A DNA stretch of 32,000 nucleotides from Flavobacteriaceae bacterium. GTDB lineage: Bacteria > Bacteroidota > Bacteroidia > Flavobacteriales > Flavobacteriaceae. The notes beneath the pieces were generated by a model that did no database searches, was not told the DNA's origin, and saw only the letters and a list, made by a program, of their open reading frames with translations. Shown here piece by piece: positions 161 through 32,000 of the stretch (positions within the stretch are counted from its first letter, which is position 1; each line of letters begins with the position of its first letter). Location: positions 1,860,001 through 1,892,000 of the forward strand of contig OZ245049.1 in assembly GCA_965224465.1 (NCBI GenBank), read 5' to 3'. A program made the position numbers and the translations under genes.

Positions 161-314
161 ACAATTCAAGTACAATCTAAAACAACCGATATAAACAGTT
201 TATTTTACGCTCTAGCGTTGTAAAAAAAAACAGAACGATATCCATCCATTTTTTACCTGGCTAAAACAAAAAATAAGTCCATTTACTAGCTGTCACTTGG
301 AAATGTATTGGTAT
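161..314. repeat. Diverged copy of the ~159-bp MITE-like repeat family (copy 1)
   Basis: Aligns by eye with 8827-8985 and 31471-31629. Shared blocks are CAATT..ACAATC..GATATAAA.AGTTTATTTTACG.TCTAGCGTTG...CAGAACGATA...GGCTAAAACAAAAAATAA..CCATTT..CACTTGGAAATGTATTGGTAT. Several indels; the internal hairpin is degraded. Confidence 0.6.
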
Positions 315-6654: not shown

Positions 6655-8787
6655 ATGAATAATATAATTGATTTTATGAAAAGCAACAAAAAACTACTGA
6701 TTTCCTTAACGTTTATCGTTTGTCTATTTTTTGGATTTAACATGCATTCTAATACCGACCCAAAAAAAGACAAAACCTTAATTAGCCTTTTACGAATGGC
6801 ACTTACCCAAGGACATTATGAGCCACATGTAATAGACGATACTTTTTCTGAAGGAGTTTTCGATAGATTTATTGAACAAATGGACCCTACCAAAAGGTAT
6901 TTTTTAAGATCCGATATTAAAGAATTTGAAATGTTTAAACATTTAATAGATGATCAAATAAAAAACGAGGATTTGTCTTTTTTCTATTTAGTTCATGATC
7001 GGTTTAATCTTCGGCTAAAAGAAGCAGAGAATGCTTATGAAAAAATGTTAGATCGTCCTTTTAATTTTAATAAAGATGAAACATTAAGTGTGGATTATGA
7101 GCATAAGAACTATGCCAAATCAACATCAAAATTAGCTGCCCGATGGAGAAAACAATTAAAACACAGCACAATAAATAGGCTGCATGATAAACTAAAAACA
7201 GAAAATAGTAAAAAGGAAAAAGATGCTTCCTATAAATCTAAATCATTTAAAACGCTAGAAAAAGAAGCTAGAAAAAGCACGAAGGAGTTTATGTCAGATT
7301 TTTATGATCGCATGAACGAATTGGAACAAGCAGATTGGTTTACAACTTACATAAATGCTATTACAGAAGAATTTGACCCACATACCGCTTATTTTGACCC
7401 TAAATACAAAAAACGATTTGACCAAAGCATGTCGGGGAAACTTGAAGGAATTGGGGCACGATTACAAAGAACCAAAGAATACACAAAAGTCGCTGCATTA
7501 ATTTCTGGTGGACCAGCATGGAAAGGTGGAGAATTGGAAGTTGGTGATTTAATTATCAAAGTAGCACAAGGAGACGAAGAAGCTGTAGATATTGTAGGTA
7601 TGCGCTTGGACAAAGCCATCGAATATATCAAAGGAAAAAAAGGAACGACTGTAAAATTAACCTTAAAGAAAGTTGACGGTTCTATCAAAACAATTTCAAT
7701 AGTAAGAGATATTATCGAAATAGAAGAGACCTTTGTAAAATCTTCTATTATAAAAAAAGACGGTCGTACTTTTGGTTTGATTAACCTTCCTAAATTTTAC
7801 ATTGATTTTGCGAAAAGAAATGCTCGAAATTCTACTTCAGACATGATTCAAGAAATAGAACGATTAAAAAAACAGCATATAGAAGGATTGGTCATAGATT
7901 TACGAAATAACGGAGGAGGCTCTCTTAAAACCGCAATAGAAATTAGTGGACTCTTTATAAACAAAGGTCCTATTGTTCAAGTAAAATACAGAGGAAAGGA
8001 TGCTACTATTAAGAAAGACACCGACAAACGAATCCAATGGAATGGCCCCTTAGTTCTTATGGTGAATGAACTTTCTGCATCTGCTTCAGAAATATTTGCT
8101 GCAGCCATGCAAGACTACAAAAGAGCCGTAATTATAGGCCCCAAACACACCTATGGAAAAGGCACTGTACAGAGCGTTTTTAACTTAAACAAATACCACA
8201 ATTTAGATGCTGATTTAGGAGCTTTAAAAATGACTATTCAGAAATTTTACCGCATCAATGGTGGATCAACACAACTGGAAGGTGTAACTTCTGATATTAT
8301 TGTCCCTACTCGTTTTAGCTATATGACTATTGGAGAAAAAGATTTAGACAACCCTTTGAGTTATGACAAAATAGCTCCTGCGAACTATAATTTATGGGAT
8401 AATTACAGTAATTTTAACGAAGTAATTGCTGCTAGTAAAACAAGAATTGGAAAAAATGAGCAATTCAATTTAATTGACCAAAACGCACAATGGCTTAAAA
8501 AAGCGCAAGAAGACAATACTGTATATCTGAATTTCAAAGCTTATGAGAAAGACGTGAAATTTATAGAGAATAAATCTGCTAAATACAAAAAACTTGCAGA
8601 CTTCAAAAGCAACTACACCTATCAATCTCCTTTGTATGAAATACCTTTAGTAGAAAAAGACAGCTTGTTGCTAAAGAAAAGAGAAATTTGGCATAAAAAC
8701 CTTCAAAAAGATGTGTACATAGCAGAAGCGTTAACCGTGTTAGGTGAACTAAAGATTAAACCGAACTATGTTGCAATAAAGCAGTAA
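6655..8787 (+). CDS. prc: Tail-specific (C-terminal processing) protease, peptidase family S41, long Tsp/Prc-like form
   Basis: N-terminal TM/signal, a PDZ-like region (GELEVGDLIIKV), DLRNNGGG, the catalytic-serine context NELSASASEIFA and the lysine context TYGKGTVQ. Confidence 0.85.
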   Translation: MNNIIDFMKSNKKLLISLTFIVCLFFGFNMHSNTDPKKDKTLISLLRMALTQGHYEPHVIDDTFSEGVFDRFIEQMDPTKRYFLRSDIKEFEMFKHLIDDQIKNEDLSFFYLVHDRFNLRLKEAENAYEKMLDRPFNFNKDETLSVDYEHKNYAKSTSKLAARWRKQLKHSTINRLHDKLKTENSKKEKDASYKSKSFKTLEKEARKSTKEFMSDFYDRMNELEQADWFTTYINAITEEFDPHTAYFDPKYKKRFDQSMSGKLEGIGARLQRTKEYTKVAALISGGPAWKGGELEVGDLIIKVAQGDEEAVDIVGMRLDKAIEYIKGKKGTTVKLTLKKVDGSIKTISIVRDIIEIEETFVKSSIIKKDGRTFGLINLPKFYIDFAKRNARNSTSDMIQEIERLKKQHIEGLVIDLRNNGGGSLKTAIEISGLFINKGPIVQVKYRGKDATIKKDTDKRIQWNGPLVLMVNELSASASEIFAAAMQDYKRAVIIGPKHTYGKGTVQSVFNLNKYHNLDADLGALKMTIQKFYRINGGSTQLEGVTSDIIVPTRFSYMTIGEKDLDNPLSYDKIAPANYNLWDNYSNFNEVIAASKTRIGKNEQFNLIDQNAQWLKKAQEDNTVYLNFKAYEKDVKFIENKSAKYKKLADFKSNYTYQSPLYEIPLVEKDSLLLKKREIWHKNLQKDVYIAEALTVLGELKIKPNYVAIKQ

Positions 8788-9029
8788 TACCATTTCTAAC
8801 CGTCACTTGGAAATGTATTTGGTATCACCAATTACAATCCAACATGACAGATATAAAAAGTTTGTTTTATGTTCTAGCGTTGTTGAAAAACAGAACGATA
8901 GCGAAGGCTATCCTTAGATTTTTTGCCTAGCTAGAACAAAAAATAATACCATTTCTAAACCGTCACTTGGAAATTTAATTGGTATCACCAATTACAATCC
9001 AACATGACAGATATAAAAAGTTTGTTTTA
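8785..9029. repeat. Head-to-tail array (about 1.5 units) of the 159-bp MITE-like repeat
   Basis: Right-end fragment (8785-8825), C, full unit (8827-8985), C, left-end fragment (8987-9029). The two left ends are identical over 43 bp. Period is 160 bp. Confidence 0.85.
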
Positions 9030-9050
9030 AAAGAGTAGCCCCTCTTTTAA

Positions 9051-12251: not shown

Positions 12252-15200
12252 ATGAAAAGAACACTTCTCCTCCTATTAATATTTGGCTTTTTTTCTAGCC
12301 ATATTAGTGCTCAGATACAAATATCATTAAATGTAGATTCAAACCCTACTCCTGAATTATCAGAATGGGCAAACAGAAACAATTTAGCCATTTTTACAGT
12401 CACCAATACCGATCCAGATTGGGTGGTGGAATACATCTTAAAAGTAGAATTATACAAAGATGGGATTCTTATGTTGGAAACAAATAACAATGTAACTCCA
12501 CAAACACTAGAGATGGGTACTGTTACCTTTTTAGCGGATGAAATAATCCCATACAATGCAATTAATTTTACCAATAATAATTTCCAACAAGCCATCTTAC
12601 AAACGGGGCTATTACCTGCTGGAACCTATTCTTTTTGCGTTAGCATGCTCAAAAGCGATGATTATGCAGTCATTGCAACAGACACTCCAAATCCTGCATG
12701 TCAACCCATGTTAATTACAGATTATCAAATTCCCGAATTAATTATGCCAATAAGTGATGTTTCAATTTCTTCACTATTAGTACCTACTATTAATTTTACG
12801 TGGTCTCCTGTGACACCAGGACCAGACCCAAGTCATTTTTCTGTAGAATACCGCATCCTCGTATCAGAGATATTCAGCAATCAATCATCTGCCAGTCAGG
12901 CATTTCATGTAAACACAGGACTGATAGACGAAGAAGGGCTAACAAGCACGCAATTTATGTGGCCTTCCGATTTAGAAGCTCCAGATGATTTGACAAACTA
13001 TGTATGGAGTGTACAAGCCATCAATACCAATAACAGTTTGCCTATTTTCCAAACAAACAACGGCTTCTCTTCCATTGAAACCTTTACTATAACACCGGCA
13101 AACAATGTGGACGTAGTTGACTGTGAATGTGATGTTGCCAACTTAACACAACCAACTGTAGCTATAATTCAATCTGATTCCATTAATAATCCAAGGAAAT
13201 TAAAGCTAACAAACATACCTCAACTCAAAAACTACCTGATTAACTGCAACACGGTATTTAATGCAAATCCCGCCGATTATACCATAGACATGAGTATTAA
13301 CTGGGACAATGCCCATGACGAGGAAGCAGTTCCTGATGGAGCTACTGTTTTTGAGCATGAATTCAATGCCACCAGTCATGAAATACCTGAAGAAATTTGC
13401 ATCAACTACACCATATACCCAGTATCTACAGGAATTAGTGGTGCACAATGCGAAAACGAAATATGTATAGAGACACCACAGGCATTTTTAGACTTAAACT
13501 TTAGCAATACGCCCACTGCAATTGTAGCGGTTGGAGACACAATAAAAGCTGGATATAATCACGAATTCAACATTCTTGTCTCCCAAGTATCCATAGACAG
13601 TACCAATAATAAAATTACAGGAAAAGGAAACGTTTTTGTAAAATGGCTAGGCGCGAGAGTGGCTGTTCAATTTAATGAAATCACCCTTGACACCACCAGA
13701 AACTTACTTACAGGAAAAATACTTGGAGAATCATACCCTGCTCCTGCTCCAGTATACCCACAAGCTTGGGGAGAAGAAATAATTGCCAATAACAATACAG
13801 CAAATACGACTGCAAACAACATAGCAAACTGGGGAAACAATACTGTTGCTGATGTTATTAATTGGACAAACAGTACGTCTGGAAAAATAGTAACCTGGGT
13901 AAACAACACCGCGGGAACATCGATAAACAGTCCTACAATTGACCCACAAGCACCTATTCCTACAGGCCCATTGACAGATAACACAACACCTGTAAAATTT
14001 CCTTTAGGAGTTAATTTCGCAAACGGAGACCAATTGGCAATCACAGAGATGGTATTTAGACCCAACCTCTCAGAATTTAATCTTGTAGTTGCAAAAAACA
14101 CACCTCCTAGTTGGCAAGCTCCGGGAGAGCCAGCACAACTTATTGGCTTCCTTGCCCGAAATACTAAATTTCACCCAAACAGTGTAGAAACACCTCCTGA
14201 AAGACTAGAGCTTGTAGAAGATGTAAACATTGGAAACATGAACAACAAAATTACTTTTACATTTATAAGTCCCGCAAACTCACCTAATGGATGTTATATT
14301 GAATGGGATGACGATGGGTTTTCACAATTTGGAATAGAACTAGAAAGTTCATTCACAAGAGAATGGTTAATTCCTTCTCCAGATGATGGAACACGATCTA
14401 AAGCAACTTTTGTAAGTACCGTTCAGAACTGGGATGATTTAGTACTGACTGGAAATTTACAAAAATCAGAAATTGTAGACTCCCAAGCCATGACCATTTT
14501 TGCAGGAAATATTTCCTTGGACTTGTCGGATACCATCAACCCTACTAATTTACAATCGGCTTCTGACTTCCCATCCAACTATGCAGGTGATAAAACCATG
14601 CTTTTTAGAGGATTTCACATGGAAGAATTAACCGCAGAAATGCCAGATTGCTGGCAAACAAATAGCAATGGCGTTCCTACTATTTCTATCTACGACATGA
14701 TTATTAACGATACAGGACTTACCATGGTAGCTGAAGCAGTAAATGTAGCAGCTTTTAGAGGGGCAAATGTAGCCGATTTAATTGCAAGTATAGACACTAT
14801 TCATATTGATATCCGAAGCAGTTCCTTTCACGATGCCTATATTAAAGGGAAAATAGGCTTACCTGTAAGCAAAGCAGATTCTATACAAAACCCATTAAAG
14901 TATCACGCCTTATTCACAACAGCGACTCAACCTCCTTCGTTTCAATTGACCATTGAACCCACAGGTCCTATAAAAGCAACTTTATTAAAAGGAGTAATGG
15001 AGCTAGACCCGACTTCAAATATTGTAGCCAATGTTTCTAAAAACCCGAATTACAGCCCTGGAAATAGCAATAGTAAAAAGTACAAAAAAACATTTCATGC
15101 TACTTTAAACGGGAATTTTGTTTGGGATGATGTCAAGTTAGGTCCCGTTAAACATGTGAATATGAACCTTGGGTTTCAAGGAATAGAAATGAATTACAAC

Positions 15201-17927
15201 AATGTTCAACCCAATAATAAATTCAATTTTAATGCAGGAACATGGGCATTTGCAAGTCCTCAGAAATTTTTATCTAACTTTCCTGTTACCATAGAAAATA
15301 TAGCATTTAATCAGAAATCTACAACAGGAAACCAACTCTTGCATGGAGATCTGAACTTTGATGTGATTTTTAATCTATCCGAAGACATTGGAGGACAAAC
15401 AAAATTAGCTGTAGAAATTGCGATAGAAGAAAACCCAAACGGTACAGGTACTGGTAAATTCAAACCCAAATACATAAGTACAAGGATCAATGATATTTCC
15501 ATATACGCGCACTTACCAGCAGTTTCAATAGATGGAACTTTGGAGTTCAGAAACGACCATCCTGTTTATGGAAATGGATTTAAAGGAGAATTAGAAGCGG
15601 CATTTAAAACACCTAATATTGGCATCAGAGCCTTGGCAGAATTTGGAAACACAAATTACCTTAATAACGGAGCAACCTACCGCTATTGGAGAATAGAAGC
15701 AGCAGCAAAATTCCAACCAGGAATACCCTTTTTACCCGGTATTGCATTTTACGGTTTCGGAGGAGGCGCCTTTAGTAATATGGAAGGTTCTCTTGTTGAA
15801 AATCCAACAGACCCAGACACACCGCCCTACTACAGTTTTGAACCAAAAAAAGGGAATTTAGGTTTTCAAGTAGAAGCCACGATTGGTGCAGCAGCAAAAG
15901 TAGATTCTTTTAATGCAGATGTAGGATTGAACGGACAATTTTCAAGCTCTAATGGTTTAATTAATATTGGTTTTACAGGAGATTTTTACATAGGAGGACC
16001 ACTAACACCTCAACACGAAAGAGAAAAAGCACAAATTAAAGGAAGTGTTATCGCTGATTACAATTTCCCTGACAAGCATTTTTTTATGAATGTTGATGCT
16101 ACTATTAACACCGATAAGATAAAAACTTTACCTGGACAACCTGTAAAATTAAACGTAGATATTAACGGAAGTAACAACCGTTGGCATTTTAAATTTGGAG
16201 AGCCAGACGCCTTAAATACGGTGTCAATATTTAATTTTGAACTCTATGAATATTTAATGTTTGGAAATAACATCTCAGCTCCTAGCGGTTTTACAAATAC
16301 TTTTAAAAGTGGATGGGCTTCGGTATTTGACGGAGACCAACCAGGAATCCCAGTAGGATCTGGAGTTAATAACAATTCTGCATTAGGAAAAGGATTTGCT
16401 TTTGGTACAGGTTTCAAATTTGACAAAGAAATTGACTTTCATATTTGGAATGGCTATAATGTAGAAATAGATGTTGCCGCTGGCGCCGAATTAAATTTAA
16501 GTATGATGCAAAAAACAGGCGCCAATTGTGACAACCCTTCTAAACAATTCGGACTCAATGGATGGAGAGCCAATGGTTCTATAGGTTTTTACGGTGCTGT
16601 AGCAGCTGGAGTAAGTAAAGGATCCAAATATTGGCCTTTAATGGACATTAGAGCTGGAGGGTGGTTAGAAGGAAAATTTGTAAACCCTACCTATGTGGCA
16701 GGAGAAATTCGAGGACAAGCAGTTGCTGGACACTTTACGACTAAAATTCATTTTCTAGGAGATTGTAAAAAAGGATGCGGTGCATATCACCTTAAACATT
16801 CCAGACAATGGACATCCTGTAAACACCCTCAGCATCATTATCTAATTGATAAAAGTTTCCAAAAAGACTTTGAGTGGGGCGCTAGTTGTTTAAATAATGC
16901 TGGATACTCAGAACCTGACAACACCAGTAATGATACCTCATTTACACAAGGAGATGCTGCTGAAGATCAATCTCAAAAACTAATAAAATACATACATCCA
17001 ACACCTAGTAACATGATTTATAATTTCCCGGTGACACAGCCTATTTCCATAAAATTTGGACTGAACCCTGAAGAAGTATTTGATGTTGCTGAACAACAAC
17101 AATCTGGAACAATTTTAACAAGAACGTTTAAGTTGGAACGTACCGTATCTCTATTTATAGACAATGCAGACGACGGAAATTACACAAATATATCCGCAAG
17201 CCTTTCTACAGGAAGACGACTATTAAAAAGCACAAATAACATAGGAGAAGAGCTGTATACAGAAACCTCAAACACAATCACTGCAACAGCACAAATGTCT
17301 ACAGCGCTCTTAAGCTCAGAACCAAGTAGTACAGGAACAGCACAGGTAGTAAATATGCAATTAGCCCCAAACCCAACTACTGGTGCAGGAATATTTTCAA
17401 ACAGCCAACTCTTATCAGCTACGAAACAAGAACAAGGAATATTAAGTTTCCCTTCTACATCTACTGGCAGCTCTACTGGCAGCGGATCTTCTAGCGGAAG
17501 CGGCTCCTCTGGCTCTGCGAGTTATGATGATTTACCAGCACCAACACCTCCTGTTATAAATCATTTATCACTAAATAAAAGTTACAAAATAATAGTAGTT
17601 GCTACATTAAAAGAATACAGCAACGAGCAATGGGTGGATGCAAAAAAATCAAATGGTAGCAGTGTTACTGAAACAAAAACAAAGTTTTTCAGAACAGGCC
17701 CTAAAAAAGCCATAAACAATGCCGTATCACGTAAAGAAAACGACTTCAATAAAGAGACTCCAAATGGCAAAAAAACAGCTAGTTCAAGGAAAGCTCTTCC
17801 CGCAAGAAAAACAAGAACCCGTCCTAAAAACAAAGAAATTCTCGAAAAAAATAAGTCGTTTAGAGGAAAGAAAAAAGACAGAAAACGCTCAAAAAAGAAC
17901 GTAAAAACTAATTCCAAAAGAAACTAA
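12252..17927 (+). CDS. Giant secreted protein (1891 aa), unknown function
   Basis: Signal peptide (…SSHISAQ) and an uninterrupted 5.7-kb ORF. Carries a Ser/Gly linker and a Lys/Arg-rich C-terminal tail. I recognised no T9SS C-terminal sorting domain. Confidence 0.75.
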   Translation: MKRTLLLLLIFGFFSSHISAQIQISLNVDSNPTPELSEWANRNNLAIFTVTNTDPDWVVEYILKVELYKDGILMLETNNNVTPQTLEMGTVTFLADEIIPYNAINFTNNNFQQAILQTGLLPAGTYSFCVSMLKSDDYAVIATDTPNPACQPMLITDYQIPELIMPISDVSISSLLVPTINFTWSPVTPGPDPSHFSVEYRILVSEIFSNQSSASQAFHVNTGLIDEEGLTSTQFMWPSDLEAPDDLTNYVWSVQAINTNNSLPIFQTNNGFSSIETFTITPANNVDVVDCECDVANLTQPTVAIIQSDSINNPRKLKLTNIPQLKNYLINCNTVFNANPADYTIDMSINWDNAHDEEAVPDGATVFEHEFNATSHEIPEEICINYTIYPVSTGISGAQCENEICIETPQAFLDLNFSNTPTAIVAVGDTIKAGYNHEFNILVSQVSIDSTNNKITGKGNVFVKWLGARVAVQFNEITLDTTRNLLTGKILGESYPAPAPVYPQAWGEEIIANNNTANTTANNIANWGNNTVADVINWTNSTSGKIVTWVNNTAGTSINSPTIDPQAPIPTGPLTDNTTPVKFPLGVNFANGDQLAITEMVFRPNLSEFNLVVAKNTPPSWQAPGEPAQLIGFLARNTKFHPNSVETPPERLELVEDVNIGNMNNKITFTFISPANSPNGCYIEWDDDGFSQFGIELESSFTREWLIPSPDDGTRSKATFVSTVQNWDDLVLTGNLQKSEIVDSQAMTIFAGNISLDLSDTINPTNLQSASDFPSNYAGDKTMLFRGFHMEELTAEMPDCWQTNSNGVPTISIYDMIINDTGLTMVAEAVNVAAFRGANVADLIASIDTIHIDIRSSSFHDAYIKGKIGLPVSKADSIQNPLKYHALFTTATQPPSFQLTIEPTGPIKATLLKGVMELDPTSNIVANVSKNPNYSPGNSNSKKYKKTFHATLNGNFVWDDVKLGPVKHVNMNLGFQGIEMNYNNVQPNNKFNFNAGTWAFASPQKFLSNFPVTIENIAFNQKSTTGNQLLHGDLNFDVIFNLSEDIGGQTKLAVEIAIEENPNGTGTGKFKPKYISTRINDISIYAHLPAVSIDGTLEFRNDHPVYGNGFKGELEAAFKTPNIGIRALAEFGNTNYLNNGATYRYWRIEAAAKFQPGIPFLPGIAFYGFGGGAFSNMEGSLVENPTDPDTPPYYSFEPKKGNLGFQVEATIGAAAKVDSFNADVGLNGQFSSSNGLINIGFTGDFYIGGPLTPQHEREKAQIKGSVIADYNFPDKHFFMNVDATINTDKIKTLPGQPVKLNVDINGSNNRWHFKFGEPDALNTVSIFNFELYEYLMFGNNISAPSGFTNTFKSGWASVFDGDQPGIPVGSGVNNNSALGKGFAFGTGFKFDKEIDFHIWNGYNVEIDVAAGAELNLSMMQKTGANCDNPSKQFGLNGWRANGSIGFYGAVAAGVSKGSKYWPLMDIRAGGWLEGKFVNPTYVAGEIRGQAVAGHFTTKIHFLGDCKKGCGAYHLKHSRQWTSCKHPQHHYLIDKSFQKDFEWGASCLNNAGYSEPDNTSNDTSFTQGDAAEDQSQKLIKYIHPTPSNMIYNFPVTQPISIKFGLNPEEVFDVAEQQQSGTILTRTFKLERTVSLFIDNADDGNYTNISASLSTGRRLLKSTNNIGEELYTETSNTITATAQMSTALLSSEPSSTGTAQVVNMQLAPNPTTGAGIFSNSQLLSATKQEQGILSFPSTSTGSSTGSGSSSGSGSSGSASYDDLPAPTPPVINHLSLNKSYKIIVVATLKEYSNEQWVDAKKSNGSSVTETKTKFFRTGPKKAINNAVSRKENDFNKETPNGKKTASSRKALPARKTRTRPKNKEILEKNKSFRGKKKDRKRSKKNVKTNSKRN

Positions 17928-24253: not shown

Positions 24254-24300
24254 GGTATAAATTCATTTTTAATAATGGAGTATCCTTCCCTGTTGAAAAG

Positions 24301-25134
24301 ATGTGTAAATCCATGCGCGTTAGTAAAAACGCATATTATCACTGGGTAAACAATAACGGTTCCAGCGTACAGAATACTGCTAAAGTAGACTTGATGGATA
24401 GGATTACCTATCATTTTATCGAAAGTAAAGAGATCTATGGGAGTCATAGAATTCAAAAAGCATTGGAGCGAGAAGGAGTGTATTATTGCCGTTCTTACGT
24501 GGCGCTGTTGATGAAAGAGATGGGTCTGCGAAGTGTTCTGAAGAAGGCTTTTGTGGTAACTACAGACTCTAAACACGATTATCCTATTGCTAAAAATATA
24601 TTAAACAGAGAGTTTACCAGTTTGAAAATAGGAGATAAATGGGTGTCAGACATCACCTATATACGCGTAAATGATGATTGGAATTACTTAACCACGATAA
24701 TTGATTTAGCTGACAGAAAAGTGGCAGGATGGTCTTTAAGTGAGGACATGACCACCCAAAACACTATTGTAAAAGCGTGGATTGCGGCTAGAAGAACAAG
24801 AGCTATTAATCCAGGGTTTATCTTTCATTCAGACAGAGGAGTGCAATACGCATCTAATAAAATGACTGCTATTTTATATTTTAATCAGAAAATAACACAG
24901 AGCATGAGTAGAAAAGGTAATTGTTGGGATAATGCTGTTGCTGAGAGCTTTTTTAAATCCATAAAGTATGAGTGGCTCTATCGTTTCAAGTACATGTCAT
25001 ATCTGCAATTACACGAGTCGATAAATGAATATATCTCTTGGTACAATATCAAAAGATTACATTCAAGTTTAGGGTATTTATCACCGCTTGAAATGGAAAT
25101 AAAACTAAAAAAGGAAATTAAGAAAGTGGCTTAG
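24301..25134 (+). CDS. IS3-family transposase OrfB (DDE/rve integrase core), probably expressed as an OrfAB fusion from about 24220
   Basis: WVSDITYI…, HSDRGVQYAS, CWDNAVAESFF and YNIKRLHSSLGYLSP are motifs typical of the rve catalytic core. Confidence 0.9.
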   Translation: MCKSMRVSKNAYYHWVNNNGSSVQNTAKVDLMDRITYHFIESKEIYGSHRIQKALEREGVYYCRSYVALLMKEMGLRSVLKKAFVVTTDSKHDYPIAKNILNREFTSLKIGDKWVSDITYIRVNDDWNYLTTIIDLADRKVAGWSLSEDMTTQNTIVKAWIAARRTRAINPGFIFHSDRGVQYASNKMTAILYFNQKITQSMSRKGNCWDNAVAESFFKSIKYEWLYRFKYMSYLQLHESINEYISWYNIKRLHSSLGYLSPLEMEIKLKKEIKKVA

Positions 25135-25142
25135 TAAAATAG

Positions 25143-25622
25143 TCACATATTTATTAGGAACTCCAATAGATGTATTCCATTTCTATTGGATGTTTGAATA
25201 TAAACTGTACTTAATATGAATATCGAGTTGATGTCTTTATGGAAAAGATGAATTACGTCCTGGTAATTATTACCTATTTTCTCCGTAAAAATTAGTTGAA
25301 AAGTAGTATCATAATTGCATTTAAGATGAACTGAATACAATTCATTAAAGTTTTCTAAATTTATTTTTTTTTTGAAAATATGTTCTTTTATTTTAACATT
25401 TAAGTATACATTTTTATCACTGTCTTTTAATAAAGATATTCTTGTGTTTGTATGATCTAGATTGCAAGTTTCTGTAACTTCTTTTTTATTAATCTTTACT
25501 GATTTTTCTTTGAGAACAAGAACTTTATTCGTGATTTTTTCTTTACTTTTTTTACAAGAATAAAAAGCAATCGAAAACAGAATACATACTAATAATATCT
25601 TCAAGCTAAGCGTATTGTTCAT
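25143..25622 (-). CDS. Lipoprotein, candidate immunity protein for the upstream effector fragment; 3' end altered by the IS3 insertion
   Basis: Signal plus lipobox (SIAFYSC). Its ATG directly follows the effector stop (TAAATG). Its last codon and its TGA stop lie in the IS3 right terminal repeat. Confidence 0.55.
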   Translation of the reverse strand: MNNTLSLKILLVCILFSIAFYSCKKSKEKITNKVLVLKEKSVKINKKEVTETCNLDHTNTRISLLKDSDKNVYLNVKIKEHIFKKKINLENFNELYSVHLKCNYDTTFQLIFTEKIGNNYQDVIHLFHKDINSIFILSTVYIQTSNRNGIHLLEFLINM

Positions 25623-27153: not shown

Positions 27154-27311
27154 AGGAACAGAGAAACAATTAGTAAAACAAATACTTAACAATAAAATAT
27201 ATAAATATTTCATATTATTTTAATTTAGAATATTGTTGTATTTTTTTTCGGGACTGTAAACTCAACTCTGTCTGAATAAAAAAAAGTATTAACTTTATTC
27301 AAACAGAAAAC

Positions 27312-28544
27312 ATGACAAAAGACGAGTTAGCCAACATTGAAAAAAAGGCATTGGATCAATTATTATCAGGAAAAAGTTTATTCGGAAAAGAAGGTGCCTT
27401 TGCTCCTTTAATGAAACAATTTCTTGAGAAAGCATTGGAAGCAGAAATGGAATCACACCTTAGTGAAGAGGAACGTTCTAAAGGGAATAAACGTAATGGA
27501 AAGGGCAAAAAGACTGTTAAAACTAGTATTGGTAGTTTTGAAATAAGCACGCCAGCGGATAGAAATAGTAGTTTCGAGCCTGTTCTGATAAAAAAGCGTC
27601 AAACCATTTTAGCAGATAATTTATCAGATAAGATCATTGGATTATACGGCCTAGGAATGAGCTTACGCGATATTTCTGGTCATATAAAAGAGATGTATGA
27701 TACAGATATATCACACACTGTTTTAAGTCAAATTACAGATAAGATCATACCAGATATAAAACAATGGCAAAGTCGTCCAATAGAACAGATGTACTGCATT
27801 GTTTGGCTTGACGCTATGCATTACAAGGTAAAAGTAGACGGTAAAATACAACACAAAGCACTTTACAATGTTTTAGGAGTAAATAAAGAAGGGATCAAAG
27901 AGGTTTTAGGAATGTATATTTCAGAAAGTGAAGGCGCAAATTTTTGGCTTCAAGTATTGACAGACCTTAATAACAGAGGGCTTAAGGATATCCTAATTGC
28001 CTGTACAGACAACTTAAAAGGGTTTTCAGAAGCTATCTTGAGTGTATTTCCTAAAACACAAATTCAAAAGTGTATTGTTCATCAAATTCGTAATTCTTTA
28101 AAGTATATAGCTTCCAAAGACCAAAAAGAATTTATTCGAGATTTAAAGCTTGTTTACAAGGCTGTTAATAAGGATATTGCTGAGTTGGAGTTATTGAAAT
28201 TAGAAGAAAAATGGGGAGAAAAATACCCTGTAGTTTTAGAAAGTTGGAACCGTAATTGGGAAGAGTTATCTCAGTTTTTTCAGTATACAGAACCTATCAG
28301 AAAAATAATTTACACAACAAATGCAGTAGAAGGTTTTCATAGACAGGTAAGAAAAGTAACTAAAACAAAAGGGGCTTTTACCAGTGATATGGCACTATTA
28401 AAGCTTGTTTACTTAGCAACAAAAAATATCGAAAAAAAATGGACAAACCCTTTACATAATTGGTGCTTGACAATTCAACAATTATATATTAAATTTGAAG
28501 ATCGAATAACGTTGGATTTACATAAAAACGGAAGCAATTCGTGA
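27312..28544 (+). CDS. IS256-family (mutator-type) transposase
   Basis: 410 aa with the characteristic MYCIVWLDAMHYKVK, ACTDNLKGF and IQKCIVHQIRNSLKY motifs. Confidence 0.9.
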   Translation: MTKDELANIEKKALDQLLSGKSLFGKEGAFAPLMKQFLEKALEAEMESHLSEEERSKGNKRNGKGKKTVKTSIGSFEISTPADRNSSFEPVLIKKRQTILADNLSDKIIGLYGLGMSLRDISGHIKEMYDTDISHTVLSQITDKIIPDIKQWQSRPIEQMYCIVWLDAMHYKVKVDGKIQHKALYNVLGVNKEGIKEVLGMYISESEGANFWLQVLTDLNNRGLKDILIACTDNLKGFSEAILSVFPKTQIQKCIVHQIRNSLKYIASKDQKEFIRDLKLVYKAVNKDIAELELLKLEEKWGEKYPVVLESWNRNWEELSQFFQYTEPIRKIIYTTNAVEGFHRQVRKVTKTKGAFTSDMALLKLVYLATKNIEKKWTNPLHNWCLTIQQLYIKFEDRITLDLHKNGSNS

Positions 28545-28563
28545 CGCTAGCCGCTGGGGCTCA

Positions 28564-28624
28564 TTTTAAAATAGTTCGATTTTTAAAGCAGCCTTATGAA
28601 GAGAAAATCGAACTATTTTAAAAC
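28564..28624. repeat. 20-bp perfect inverted repeat inside the IS256 element, downstream of the transposase stop
   Basis: TTTTAAAATAGTTCGATTTT … AAAATCGAACTATTTTAAAA with a 21-nt loop. Confidence 0.7.
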
Positions 28625-28717: not shown

Positions 28718-29500
28718 TTAATGTATATCCAATTGTTTTTTAAACTCATCTGTTAAATAAGGCTTTAATTCTTCAAATGAATAAAATACTCTTAAAATTG
28801 AACTAATATTTAGTGCTTCCCAGTTATTATTAATTAAAATTTCTATTCCTGGTTCTTTGTTTTCTTGTGTTATATAGTACCATTGAGGAGTACTATTAAT
28901 TAAATTACTTTCTATTATCATTGTTTTTTTTAGATTAATACCGTTTATTTCAGTATTTAATCTTTTTTTTATCTTTTTATTAATTATAGATATTAACTCC
29001 TGAGAATTATTCTTGAAAATGTTTTTAGCAGAAAACTGATTACCATTTTTTAAGTCGAAATTATAAAAGTATTCTTCAACATGTAAATTTCCAGAATAAA
29101 TCTCTAAACTTAGTTTTAATGATAAGATTGCATCTCTTTTGTAAAAACCAATTTCATAATACGTACTTTCTAAAGGTGAAAGATACTTGCAACATTCTTT
29201 TTGACTATCTTCAATGAATTGCTTAAAGTTTCCTCGTAAATCTTTAGTGTTGTCAAAATTATCGAACCAACTTAATTGATCTTCAACATCTGATAATATT
29301 ATTGAGTTAATTTTTTTATTTCTTTCTTTGTTGTGTAAATTTACATAAGGTAAATTATAAATCCGTTTTATTTTCCCTCTACAAACAATAGAATCCTTAA
29401 TTTTAAATAAAATGTTTTTTTCTTTTAGAATACTTTGACTTTTACAAGAAACGGCAAAAATTAAAACTATTAATATGCTAAGTAATTTATTTTTATTCAT
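28718..29500 (-). CDS. Lipoprotein, candidate immunity protein; DUF4163/DUF3298 (RsiV/PdaC-like) pattern
   Basis: Signal plus lipobox (IFAVSC). Overlaps the effector gene by 8 nt. IKRIYNLPYVNLHN…KKINSIILSDVE and ILSLKLSLEIYSGNLHVEEYFYNFDLKNGNQFSAKNIF resemble the DUF4163 and DUF3298 consensus patterns (…Y.GGAH…n.Dl.tGk…l.dlF). Confidence 0.55.
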   Translation of the reverse strand: MNKNKLLSILIVLIFAVSCKSQSILKEKNILFKIKDSIVCRGKIKRIYNLPYVNLHNKERNKKINSIILSDVEDQLSWFDNFDNTKDLRGNFKQFIEDSQKECCKYLSPLESTYYEIGFYKRDAILSLKLSLEIYSGNLHVEEYFYNFDLKNGNQFSAKNIFKNNSQELISIINKKIKKRLNTEINGINLKKTMIIESNLINSTPQWYYITQENKEPGIEILINNNWEALNISSILRVFYSFEELKPYLTDEFKKQLDIH

Positions 29501-30863
29501 TATTTGTTATTCTTGGAATTAGTTTTAAATCAGAATTAATTTGAAGATTAATACCTTTTGACTTAATATAGTTAATTGGTTTTACTTTTTTTAATTTTTT
29601 TAATAATTTTTCAGCTTCTTTATCTTTTAAATCGATATATGTAGTTACCATTTTCTTTTTTTTTGAATCGTACTCTTTTATTTTTACCTTTTCTTCTTTT
29701 GATATATTTAAAAGTTGATTCTCAATTCTTTTTTTATCGTTTTTATTTCCATTTTTATGAATTTCTTCATAATGTTTATATACTTTAAATCCTTTATCTT
29801 CTTTTGCTTTTAAAGTGTTATCTCGTCGATTTCTTATTCCATTATATCCTCCATTAATTGTATAAGAGGTTAGTTTTATATTGTCTTCATCAGCCCAATC
29901 CACAGTGTATTTTGACTTATATGGATTCCCTTTTATATAGTACCACAGTGCAGATTGTACACCATAAATTACATTATTAGTATCTGCTAAAAGGTCAAAC
30001 TCTCCTTTAAAATCTTTTTTATCAGTCACTTCAGTAAAGTCAACATAACCTTTTGGATCATCAGGAAAAGGATGTTTTTTCCTGTAATTAGAAAATTTCT
30101 TATAGTTAGTCCTCCCTGTCAATTGTTTTATACCTTTACCACAAAACATAAACCCATCTCTTGATAACTCATTGTCATTTTCTAATCTGTCTCCATAAAA
30201 TCTTGAAAAAAGAGGTTTTCTAAATGCTTTATGCTTTTTTAACATGATTTTAAACTTTAAAACTTCTACTTCCCCTCCTTTTTTGTCTTTTATTTTTTCT
30301 TTAACCTCTTTTAATATTATTCTTTTACCAGAATATTTCCCATATAACTTTCTTATGTCTGCTGTTACACTATTATTAACTAACAGGGTTTTGAGTTCAG
30401 CATTTGATTTAGAAATAACTTTGTCATCTTTATTCTTGATTTCAAATATTTTTGATAATTGTTTTTCTAGAGAAGACAAAATTATATTATCAATTATTTG
30501 ATTTCTGTTAAAATACTTTGCACTCAAACTTGAAAATTTATAATTGTGCCCCTCTTTCATGCTCGTAGATTTAAACTCCATCTCAGCAGCAATTTGAGAT
30601 ATAAAATGAGCTTTACGTAAACAAGTATCTAGTTTGTAGTCTTTTCTATATAAATTTAGGTATTCTATAATTTTTTTCGCTAAAGTTTCGTTTGCATTAG
30701 GCTCAATATGTTTAATTTGTTCAATAGTAAATTCTTCCTTACAATATGGACAAAGCTCTGTTGCTTTAATGGTAAGTGGTGTTTCTTTAAATGAAAGTAA
30801 CTCTCCTTTATAATATACTCTTGGTATATAAGTCCTTGATTTAATTTTTTTATCTTCTGCCAT
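29493..30863 (-). CDS. GH19/COG3179-like (predicted chitinase / phage-lysozyme-type) peptidoglycan hydrolase effector
   Basis: No signal peptide. FTIEQIKHIEPNA…LRKAHFISQIAAEMEF…KEG, then FCGKGIKQLTGRTNYKKF and INGGYNGIRNRRDN, match the conserved blocks of COG3179 proteins (AHFLAQ..HES, RGRGxIQLTGRxNY, INGGxNGxxDR). Starts 3 nt after the Hcp stop. Confidence 0.7.
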   Translation of the reverse strand: MAEDKKIKSRTYIPRVYYKGELLSFKETPLTIKATELCPYCKEEFTIEQIKHIEPNANETLAKKIIEYLNLYRKDYKLDTCLRKAHFISQIAAEMEFKSTSMKEGHNYKFSSLSAKYFNRNQIIDNIILSSLEKQLSKIFEIKNKDDKVISKSNAELKTLLVNNSVTADIRKLYGKYSGKRIILKEVKEKIKDKKGGEVEVLKFKIMLKKHKAFRKPLFSRFYGDRLENDNELSRDGFMFCGKGIKQLTGRTNYKKFSNYRKKHPFPDDPKGYVDFTEVTDKKDFKGEFDLLADTNNVIYGVQSALWYYIKGNPYKSKYTVDWADEDNIKLTSYTINGGYNGIRNRRDNTLKAKEDKGFKVYKHYEEIHKNGNKNDKKRIENQLLNISKEEKVKIKEYDSKKKKMVTTYIDLKDKEAEKLLKKLKKVKPINYIKSKGINLQINSDLKLIPRITNNE

Positions 30864-30866
30864 AAT

Positions 30867-31700
30867 TTATCGATTTAATAACACTTCTCCATTTTTGTTA
30901 ACAATTCCTTTAAGTTCTATATTGTTTGTGGGATCATCATCTGCATCTTCTAATACTATTATTAGTTCTTCATCTTCTGCTATATCTTTTACTTTTAAAA
31001 ACAGCTGAGAATTAGAACCAATTTCAGATTCTTTTATAGTGTTTCCTTCTTCATCTCTCCATTCTTTTTTTAGAATTCTTGGTGTTTTTTCAATTTCTTG
31101 CTCTCTCTCTAACACCGTTGGTTCAACTTCTATAAAAGGATCCTCAAACACCCAATTTTCTATTTTTTTAACATCTTTTATTTTAACAGCTCCACACGTT
31201 ATCGCTAAATTAATGTGTAAGGGTAAATTGTCTTGATTGTCAAATTCTTCTGTAAGACCTACAATATAGGCTTTATGGAATTCTACTTTGTACAAGGTTT
31301 TAAACTCATCTCTGTCATAAAATATTAATTCACCGCTAAAACTAGCATTTGGTGAAAACATATAGTGATACAAATCGCTATCAAACCCAGTAGATTCAAA
31401 CATTAAATGGAATGGGCTTTTACGCGTTGTGGTCGTAGGGTTTCCCGTAATATCTTTAAGTTTGTATAATACCAATTACAATCCAAAACAACTGATATAA
31501 ATAGTTTATTTTACGTTCTAGCGTTGTTGAAAAATAGAACCATAGCTAAGGCTATACTTAGATTTTTCGCCTAGCTAAAACAAAAAATAATTCCATTTCT
31601 AAACCGTTACTTGGAAATGTATTTGGTATAAGGTGTATTCTGCTCTTAATAACGTTCTTTCTTTTCCATCTATAATGGCGATGCCTTTAAAACTACTCAT
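30867..31700 (-). pseudogene. tssD: Bacteroidota-type Hcp/TssD-like tube protein with a 94-aa C-terminal extension, interrupted after codon ~25 by a 159-bp MITE
   Basis: 5' fragment at 31631-31700 encodes MSSFKGIAIIDGKERTLLRAEYT(LY). The track ORF (TTG start at 31475) continues LYKLKDITGNPTTTTRKSPFHLMFESTGF…SGELIFYDRDEFKTLYKVEFHKAYIVGLTEEFD…LPLHINLAITCGAVKIKD…ENW. Joined, this follows the TssD pattern F+..+…GKE..+L…Y.L…D..G.P…EST…SG.I.F…D…YI…E.…P+.I…I…KI….NW. Confidence 0.75.
31470..31629. mobile_element. 159-bp MITE-like repeat (copy 3) inserted in the Hcp gene
   Basis: Imperfect terminal inverted repeats CCAATTACAATCC and GGAAATGTATTTGG (reverse complement CCAAATACATTTCC). GTATAA is present at both junctions (31464-31469 and 31626-31631). 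Removing the element and one copy restores an uninterrupted Hcp reading frame. Confidence 0.85.
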
Positions 31701-32000
31701 GGTTTTTCAATTTTTGATTCATCTTTTAATTGGGTACAGCTTTTTTTTAAATCCGTAACTAGCACCCATAATCTCACAATAGCAATCCCGAACATGATGG
31801 TATATCCATATCGTTCACAATACAGGATGGGCTTATTGTTAGGGTGTGCCTATTTTTTTAAACGTAGATCAAATATATAAAATAATGTTATACGCAGCAT
31901 GCTTTTATGGTTAAGCCCCACATTTAGGGGGTAAATCCCCGTAGCACTGTCTAGAAACAGAAAATAATCTTTCGGAGTGCATCTTTTACGCTTATGTAAA

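Follow-up and report, generated by a model that had tools for sequence, protein, structure and literature searches.

A 159-bp MITE splits an orphan Hcp (TssD) gene of a Flavobacteriaceae genome between codons 25 and 26, and an identical MITE occupies the same codon position in at least three Hcp paralogs. We consider it highly probable that the MITE entered Hcp in a single event, that the broken 5' module was then spread by copying, and that the Hcp copy described here is most likely a pseudogene. The gene lies in a 32,000-nt stretch of contig OZ245049.1, referred to as the window, and coordinates given without a locus name are positions in it. LpxB of this genome is 77% identical to that of Lutibacter and 90% identical to that of a MAG, putting the organism within the Flavobacteriaceae, close to Lutibacter.

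The Hcp gene runs on the minus strand, and its two pieces and putative promoter are as follows:

31626-31700, minus strand: Hcp/TssD 5' fragment, codons 1-25 (MSSFKGIAIIDGKERTLLRAEYTLY), with the ATG at 31700

30867-31463, minus strand: Hcp/TssD 3' fragment, codons 26-223 plus stop, assigned by TssD match, structural model, and paralog comparison

31870-31877, minus strand: candidate native promoter TATATTTG, a match to the Bacteroidetes -7 element ~170 bp upstream of the Hcp ATG (consensus match only)

The hexamer GTATAA (plus strand) is present at both junctions, as the sequence-only reading of this DNA had noticed. Its two copies (31464-31469 and 31626-31631) are spaced 162 bp apart, the motif is absent elsewhere in 31401-31720, and at this base composition the flanks would match over 6 bp by chance with a probability of ~5e-4. 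The intervening 162 nt contain five stop codons in the gene frame, and excising them gives a continuous Hcp ORF of 223 aa reading ...AEYTLYKLKDITGNP...; the reconstruction proposed earlier was uninterrupted as stated, and its length of 222 aa was a trivial miscount. In the interrupted state, the 5' piece is a 33-aa ORF (31599-31700) whose frame enters the MITE and reaches a stop at 31599, and the open frame of the 3' piece begins no earlier than a TTG at 31475, which lies within the MITE and is the start of the 202-aa gene call P0001. The reconstructed Hcp consists of a core extending to ~aa 130, a linker ending in ...VEPTVLE (aa 144), and a variable C-terminal extension (~aa 145-223).

Features of the insert and its borders are listed below:

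31470-31628, plus strand (an arbitrary family orientation, the gene being on the minus strand): MITE of 159 bp with termini TACCAA...TTGGTA, delimited by end-to-end alignment with other copies and by its absence from the empty site in locus L002

31467-31469, no strand: left target-site duplication, TAA (TWA also flanks the copies in L003, L001 949-1108, and L006)

31629-31631, no strand: right target-site duplication, TAA (same support from the other copies)

31469-31492, no strand: left terminal inverted-repeat arm, from an inverted-repeat search

31606-31629, no strand: right terminal inverted-repeat arm, from the same search

The insert is a bacterial MITE by its features. Its inverted-repeat arms, 24 nt each, are 75% complementary overall and pair perfectly over the outer 6 nt (TACCAA/TTGGTA), and they are conserved across copies. 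MITEs are taken here to be about 50-600 bp long and to lack a transposase or other ORF; the element falls within this size range, and a scan of its six frames found no ORF, the longest open stretch being 34 codons. The element is predicted to fold into one end-to-end hairpin (-46.4 kcal/mol, z=-6.5 vs shuffles), which is retained in eight copies with five compensated pairs. The GTATAA repeat is composed of a TAA duplication and a chance match of the element end GGTA with the target TGTA, so that the true duplication is 3 bp. The insert length of 159 bp, the imperfect terminal inverted repeats, the absence of coding capacity, and the suspicion that the true target duplication was shorter than 6 bp, all put forward in the sequence-only reading, are therefore borne out. 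In Rfam, the only match within 31300-31800 is a sub-threshold CRISPR-repeat match located outside the element.

The element belongs to a dispersed repeat family. BLAST and profile searches located the following additional copies in the window, and the nhmmer profile search of the window returned none beyond these two sites and the one in Hcp:

8826-8984, plus strand: full-length MITE copy, 89% identical (BLAST, profile search)

8785-8824, plus strand: partial MITE, ~40 bp of the right end, directly after the TAA stop of an S41 protease and head-to-tail with the full copy

8986-9029, plus strand: partial MITE, 44 bp of the left end, same as the start of the full copy, which it follows head-to-tail

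165-313, plus strand: older, intergenic MITE copy, ~75-80% identical, with an 8-bp internal deletion (BLAST, profile search)

Outside the window, copies are present in L001 (949-1108), L002 (488-647), L004 (1711-1868), and a Flavobacteriaceae MAG locus, L003 (5381-5542), where the MITE lies directly after the purF stop codon. A metagenome scan yielded two more relatives on one contig (L006 and L007), and a third match (L005) is due to chance. Independent family members differ from each other by 3-25%. The flanks and tips of four copies read as follows:

Hcp copy: TAA / TACCAA...TTGGTA / TAA

L003: TAA / TATCAA...TTGGTA / TAA

L001 949-1108: TTA / TACAAT...TTGGTA / TTA

L006: TAA / CACAAA...TTGGTG / TAA

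A TWA duplication is thus found on both sides in four of the seven assessable copies (chance ~2e-9), the remaining copies being at rearranged or degenerate ends. The tips of the L006 copy are altered symmetrically (CAC...GTG), which supports these positions as the true ends of the element. An IS200/IS605-type origin (an element that makes no duplication and sits beside a conserved target) was considered and dropped because of the three further copies with clean TWA duplications.

Some of the other copies have features of their own. The stretch 8785-9030 is a head-to-tail array of ~1.5 units, comprising a ~40-bp right end, a T, a full 159-bp copy, a T, and a 44-bp left end, with a junction that reads GGTA-T-CACCAA; Tandem Repeats Finder did not report it. 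Simple nested insertion does not explain this array, and unequal recombination or an end-joining transposase (through a circle or dimer junction) is a possible origin. Copies also abut TAA stops, both at 8782-8787 in the window (S41 tail-specific protease) and in L003, where the left copy of the duplication coincides with the purF stop codon. A MITE that enters a TAA stop codon restores that stop, and this may explain why such sites survive.

A scan of genome contigs with a 27-base pattern found a single copy, the one in the Flavobacteriaceae MAG (L003); a scan of viral contigs with the right terminus gave only chance matches within a phage gene; and no match to the element was found in the plasmid database. 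A literature search for a MITE in Hcp or T6SS genes, or for a matching MITE of Flavobacteria, found nothing relevant. This TWA-duplicating family of 159-bp MITEs is therefore apparently undescribed.

The repaired protein is recognized as Hcp along its whole core. It matches the Pfam family TssD (PF17642) with E=8.8e-25 and 87.5 bits (curated cut-off 25.8), and residues 3-130 align to positions 2-128 of the 128 in the profile, continuously across the junction at aa 25/26; the expectation of the sequence-only reading that the TssD pattern would extend across the junction is borne out. We modeled the repaired Hcp with AlphaFold (AF2) from 16 homologs (mean pLDDT 68). Foldseek gives as the best match to this model Hcp1 of F. 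johnsoniae (6bdc; E=2e-8, TM 0.75 normalised by target length), followed by Hcps of B. fragilis, and the repaired protein is accordingly predicted to recover the Hcp β-barrel fold. Two modeled strands, β1 (5-10) and β2 (13-22), precede the break, and a long low-confidence loop (26-39) follows it. The break would therefore cut the first β-hairpin (β1-β2) off the rest of the barrel. Residues ~145-223 are predicted to form an additional C-terminal domain.

A protein search returned P0001 and many Hcp paralogs encoded on the same 5,241,564-bp contig. Four intact paralogs (P0002, P0017, and P0018 from this contig, and P0020) share aa 1-111 with the reconstruction without a single difference, and this includes the ...EYTLYKLKD... 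stretch that spans the junction. The corresponding empty site is found in locus L002 (ENA assembly ERZ25073217), which encodes the intact P0020 and reads ...CACCTTATACAAACT... with no insert. The L002 DNA ...GCAGAATACACCTTATACAAACTAAAAGAT... equals the window sequence minus 162 bp, and this site is paralogous, not orthologous, to that in the window. An element-free, 162-bp-shorter allele would have the exact junction CACCTTATACAAAC. The window's own locus is represented in the same assembly by L004 (99.97% identity over 6668 bp, with one extra IS256), and there the insertion is present; since L004 was assembled independently, the insertion is not an assembly artefact. L004 is the sole other assembly of this locus, and it holds no empty allele. 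For the comparison with an empty site that had been proposed in the sequence-only reading, a paralog thus provides the empty site, and the window's own locus is filled.

The interruption is shared among Hcp paralogs. Both P0004, from the same genome, and P0006, from L001, start with MVLYKLKD, in which M and V correspond to the MITE-terminal TTG GTA, followed by TTA TAC, and they therefore carry the MITE at the same codon. The C-terminal extensions of P0004 and P0006 differ from that of the window Hcp and from each other. At the DNA level, L001 1202-2094 matches window 32000-31108 at 99.8%, with 159 of the 159 MITE positions identical. The shared tract, L001 945-2094 and L004 1706-2855, has one edge inside the upstream MITE and the other at the VEPTVLE linker (aa 144), where the variable extension starts. 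Its 19 mismatches are unevenly placed, with 15 in the ~110 distal bp of the upstream MITE against 4 in the other 1033 bp (~1 kb at 99.6%). The sequence-only reading had held that its interpretation would be overturned if related genomes carried the same 159 bp as a conserved part of a functional gene or intron. Formally, the same 159 bp do recur in the paralogs, but the copies are 100% identical and embedded in a near-identical ~1-kb tract, which points to recent copying rather than to a conserved functional part or an intron.

Because the last 588 bp of L001 are identical to the first 588 bp of L004, these two interrupted Hcp loci are probably tandem neighbours. A second MITE is located ~395 bp upstream of the Hcp start in L001 and L004 (~680 bp in L002), in the same orientation as the intragenic one; the copy at L004 1711-1868 lies just beyond the window end at 32000. 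The flanks of these upstream MITEs are swapped, in that the proximal flank is common to L001 and L004 and the distal flank is common to L001 and L002, and the upstream MITE in L004 looks chimeric, with a mismatched duplication (TTA vs ATA). MITEs thus seem to mark recombination breakpoints. The Hcp-borne MITE is closest to the upstream MITE of L001 (96.8%), which suggests a local hop from the upstream MITE. The simplest reading of these alignments is one insertion, with subsequent spread of the 5' module by duplication or gene conversion.

Not all of the damaged Hcp genes carry this MITE. P0011 and P0019, also encoded on the 5.24-Mb contig, have gene calls that start only at Met45 (MFESTGFD...), although intact versions (P0020, P0018) exist; the cause of their upstream disruption appears not to be this MITE in this orientation. 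In addition, the Hcp homolog P0016 from another sample (L008 90-300) is a pseudogene that lacks an ATG, is broken by a frameshift and a stop, and contains no MITE, indicating that orphan Hcp genes of this group decay in several ways.

Two genes on the same strand directly follow the interrupted Hcp gene:

29493-30863, minus strand: candidate T6SS effector, 456 aa, starting 4 bp past the Hcp stop, with weak similarity to GH19-type phage endolysins

28718-29500, minus strand: lipoprotein-like candidate immunity protein, 260 aa, with an N-terminus ending in ...AVSCKSQ, overlapping the end of the effector gene

No T6SS core genes are present in the window. A comparable gene order is found in L011 (GCA_048268005.1, 3012-5923), where an intact Hcp with a different core and the same C-terminal extension as the window Hcp is followed by a homolog of the 456-aa protein (55% identical) and then, in the same position, by a homolog of the lipoprotein (26%). 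This arrangement supports an Hcp-effector-immunity cassette, in which the extension travels with the effector and the Hcp core is exchangeable. Within the window Hcp, the extension (30867-31270, aa ~145-223) is ~85% identical to those of P0013, P0014, P0015, and P0021, whose cores are distant (~47% overall). The Hcp paralogs are mosaics, and the C-terminal extension may be an effector-specific adaptor. Farther away, the window contains a 1891-aa ORF without a Pfam match (12252-17927); after it come a 700-aa ORF with fn3 and a hybrid histidine kinase that has a LytTR response regulator.

Taken together, we propose that an orphan Hcp gene received a 159-bp non-autonomous MITE at a TTA/TAA triplet, between its codons 25 and 26, with duplication of 3 bp. 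A DDE-type transposase acting in trans probably moved the MITE, which probably derives from the sister MITE located ~395 bp upstream. This would have been a single event. The resulting broken module, which extends from the upstream MITE to VEPTVLE and takes in the promoter region, the 25 leading codons, the intragenic MITE, and the Hcp core, would then have been copied onto other Hcp-effector cassettes by duplication or, as we infer, gene conversion among tandem, near-identical paralogs. The window Hcp copy is probably a nonfunctional pseudogene, because β1-β2 are lost and the insert brings in-frame stops. The sequence-only reading had likewise expected inactivation of Hcp, and the insertion may, as it suggested, be polar on the effector and immunity genes.

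Whether the insertion might instead be in use has to be weighed against this. The module could represent an off-state that is moved by recombination or precise excision, or the element could drive or insulate the truncated Hcp, effector, and immunity genes. The identical interrupted module is found in three different cassettes and intact versions coexist with it (P0004 vs P0018; P0020), the 6-bp direct repeat could permit precise deletion, and a MITE bounds the conversion tract, all of which would suit such a role. The Hcp remainder and the effector and immunity ORFs are all intact, which fits continued use and fits a recent event equally well. However, consensus scans of the element on the gene strand, which are weak evidence either way, found no sigma-70-like site, no full Bacteroidetes TAnnTTTG, and no terminator-like site, leaving the earlier suggestion that the element supplies a promoter for the downstream genes without support. 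Moreover, the empty allele is not seen at the window's locus, with L004 being filled, the clade's orphan Hcp genes also decay by plain frameshift (L008), and a recent neutral or deleterious event accounts for the data equally well. We therefore regard a role for the insertion as unlikely. Slightly less likely still is the specific form in which the 5' module with its MITE serves as a portable "off" cassette, shuttled among Hcp paralogs by conversion anchored on the upstream MITE and VEPTVLE; if true, a population could vary the effector cassettes loaded into its T6SS with the immunity genes kept.

The shared position could also have arisen by independent insertion in each Hcp paralog, with ACC TTA TAC as a strongly preferred target. 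The target is indeed the same in all of the paralogs, the family has a preference for TWA, and the element end together with its duplication is similar to the local GTATAA. Yet the copies in L001 and in the window and L004 are identical at 159 of 159 positions within ~1 kb of flank at 99.6-99.8%, a degree of identity not seen among truly independent family members, which differ by 3-25%, and for the most part the Hcp-borne copies are already seen to have private substitutions and a flanking haplotype in common. Repeated insertion is accordingly very unlikely. We give hardly any credence to a full-length Hcp made by removing or skipping the 162 nt in RNA or during translation, through intron-like excision or ribosomal hopping between UUA UAC sites. 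The length is a multiple of 3, the same codons are present on both sides of the insert, and the insert forms a strong hairpin, but Rfam has no intron that matches it, its size is far below that of group I/II introns, the first stop is located 9 codons past the take-off site and not adjacent to it, and the same element is found in intergenic DNA elsewhere. To our knowledge, the longest known bypass is that of T4 gene 60, and the 162-nt gap is ~3 times as long, which counts against ribosomal hopping. A single MITE insertion followed by copying of the broken module therefore remains our preferred explanation.

Gene knockout by a MITE is routine. What the present case offers is a clean documentation, in which filled and empty sites, the target duplication, and the repeat family are all on record for a little-studied lineage of Flavobacteriaceae close to Lutibacter, together with an apparently undescribed 159-bp repeat family that shapes orphan T6SS cargo loci. 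Several Hcp-effector cassettes have the same interrupted front, which points to concerted evolution of the Hcp paralogs, and the tract exchanged between them is bordered by a MITE. In annotations, P0001 (a 202-aa "TssD") as well as P0004 and P0006 deserve a disrupted-gene flag.

As candidates for the parent of this MITE family, the insertion sequences in the window and in the related loci were inspected:

~27249-28610 of the window: IS256-family element (Transposase_mut, 410 aa), adjoining the candidate immunity gene

~24300-25134 of the window: IS3-like element

L001: two IS30-family elements

L002: IS1595-family gene

None of the inverted repeats of the IS256, IS3-like, IS30, and IS1595 elements resembles TACCAAWTAC, and a fuzzy terminus search of all loci found no parent IS either. 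The extra IS256 in L004 (8631-9992) interrupts an ORF equivalent to window 25143-25622, and IS256 appears active in this lineage.

Some IS5-family subgroups (IS1031/ISL2) typically duplicate a 3-bp TWA, and the duplications made by IS30 (2-3 bp) and IS3 (3-5 bp) are also compatible with that of the MITE. PIF/Harbinger elements are described in one account as generating a 3-bp target duplication (PMC2213677). The family resembles the IS5 subgroups (IS1031/ISL2) and PIF/Harbinger with its Tourist MITEs in the 3-bp TAA/TTA duplication alone, and no transposase of the IS5-subgroup or PIF/Harbinger type is present in the DNA examined (the window and the loci).

Among bacterial repeats, the Correia and RUP elements make a TA duplication, which distinguishes them from the present family with its 3-bp TWA. 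In other respects, the family is similar to the known bacterial MITEs, including Neisseria Correia, pneumococcal RUP, enterobacterial ERIC/IRU, and P. gingivalis BrickBuilt/MITE239 elements (PMC4596501), in being 100-250 bp long, AT-rich, and non-coding. It also shares with them the inverted repeats, the short duplication, the many dispersed copies, the whole-length hairpin, and a mostly intergenic location with occasional copies inside genes. Its termini (TACCAAWTAC...) are unrelated to the IS5-type GAGACC termini of Porphyromonas gingivalis. The Rickettsia palindromic elements (RPEs) are similar in that a palindrome whose length is divisible by three resides inside a protein-coding gene. RPEs are translated as part of the protein, whereas the MITE has five in-frame stops and therefore cannot be read through.

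The host gene is comparable to the Hcps (TssD) of the Bacteroidota T6SS-iii, represented by F. johnsoniae Hcp1 (6bdc) and B. fragilis Hcp1-5, in its TssD profile, its Hcp fold, and its Hcp-effector-immunity arrangement. The window Hcp is one of at least 10 paralogs and stands without core T6SS genes in the window. Unlike the named T6SS-iii Hcps, it carries at its C terminus a variable extension of ~80 aa, which changes together with the effector encoded downstream.
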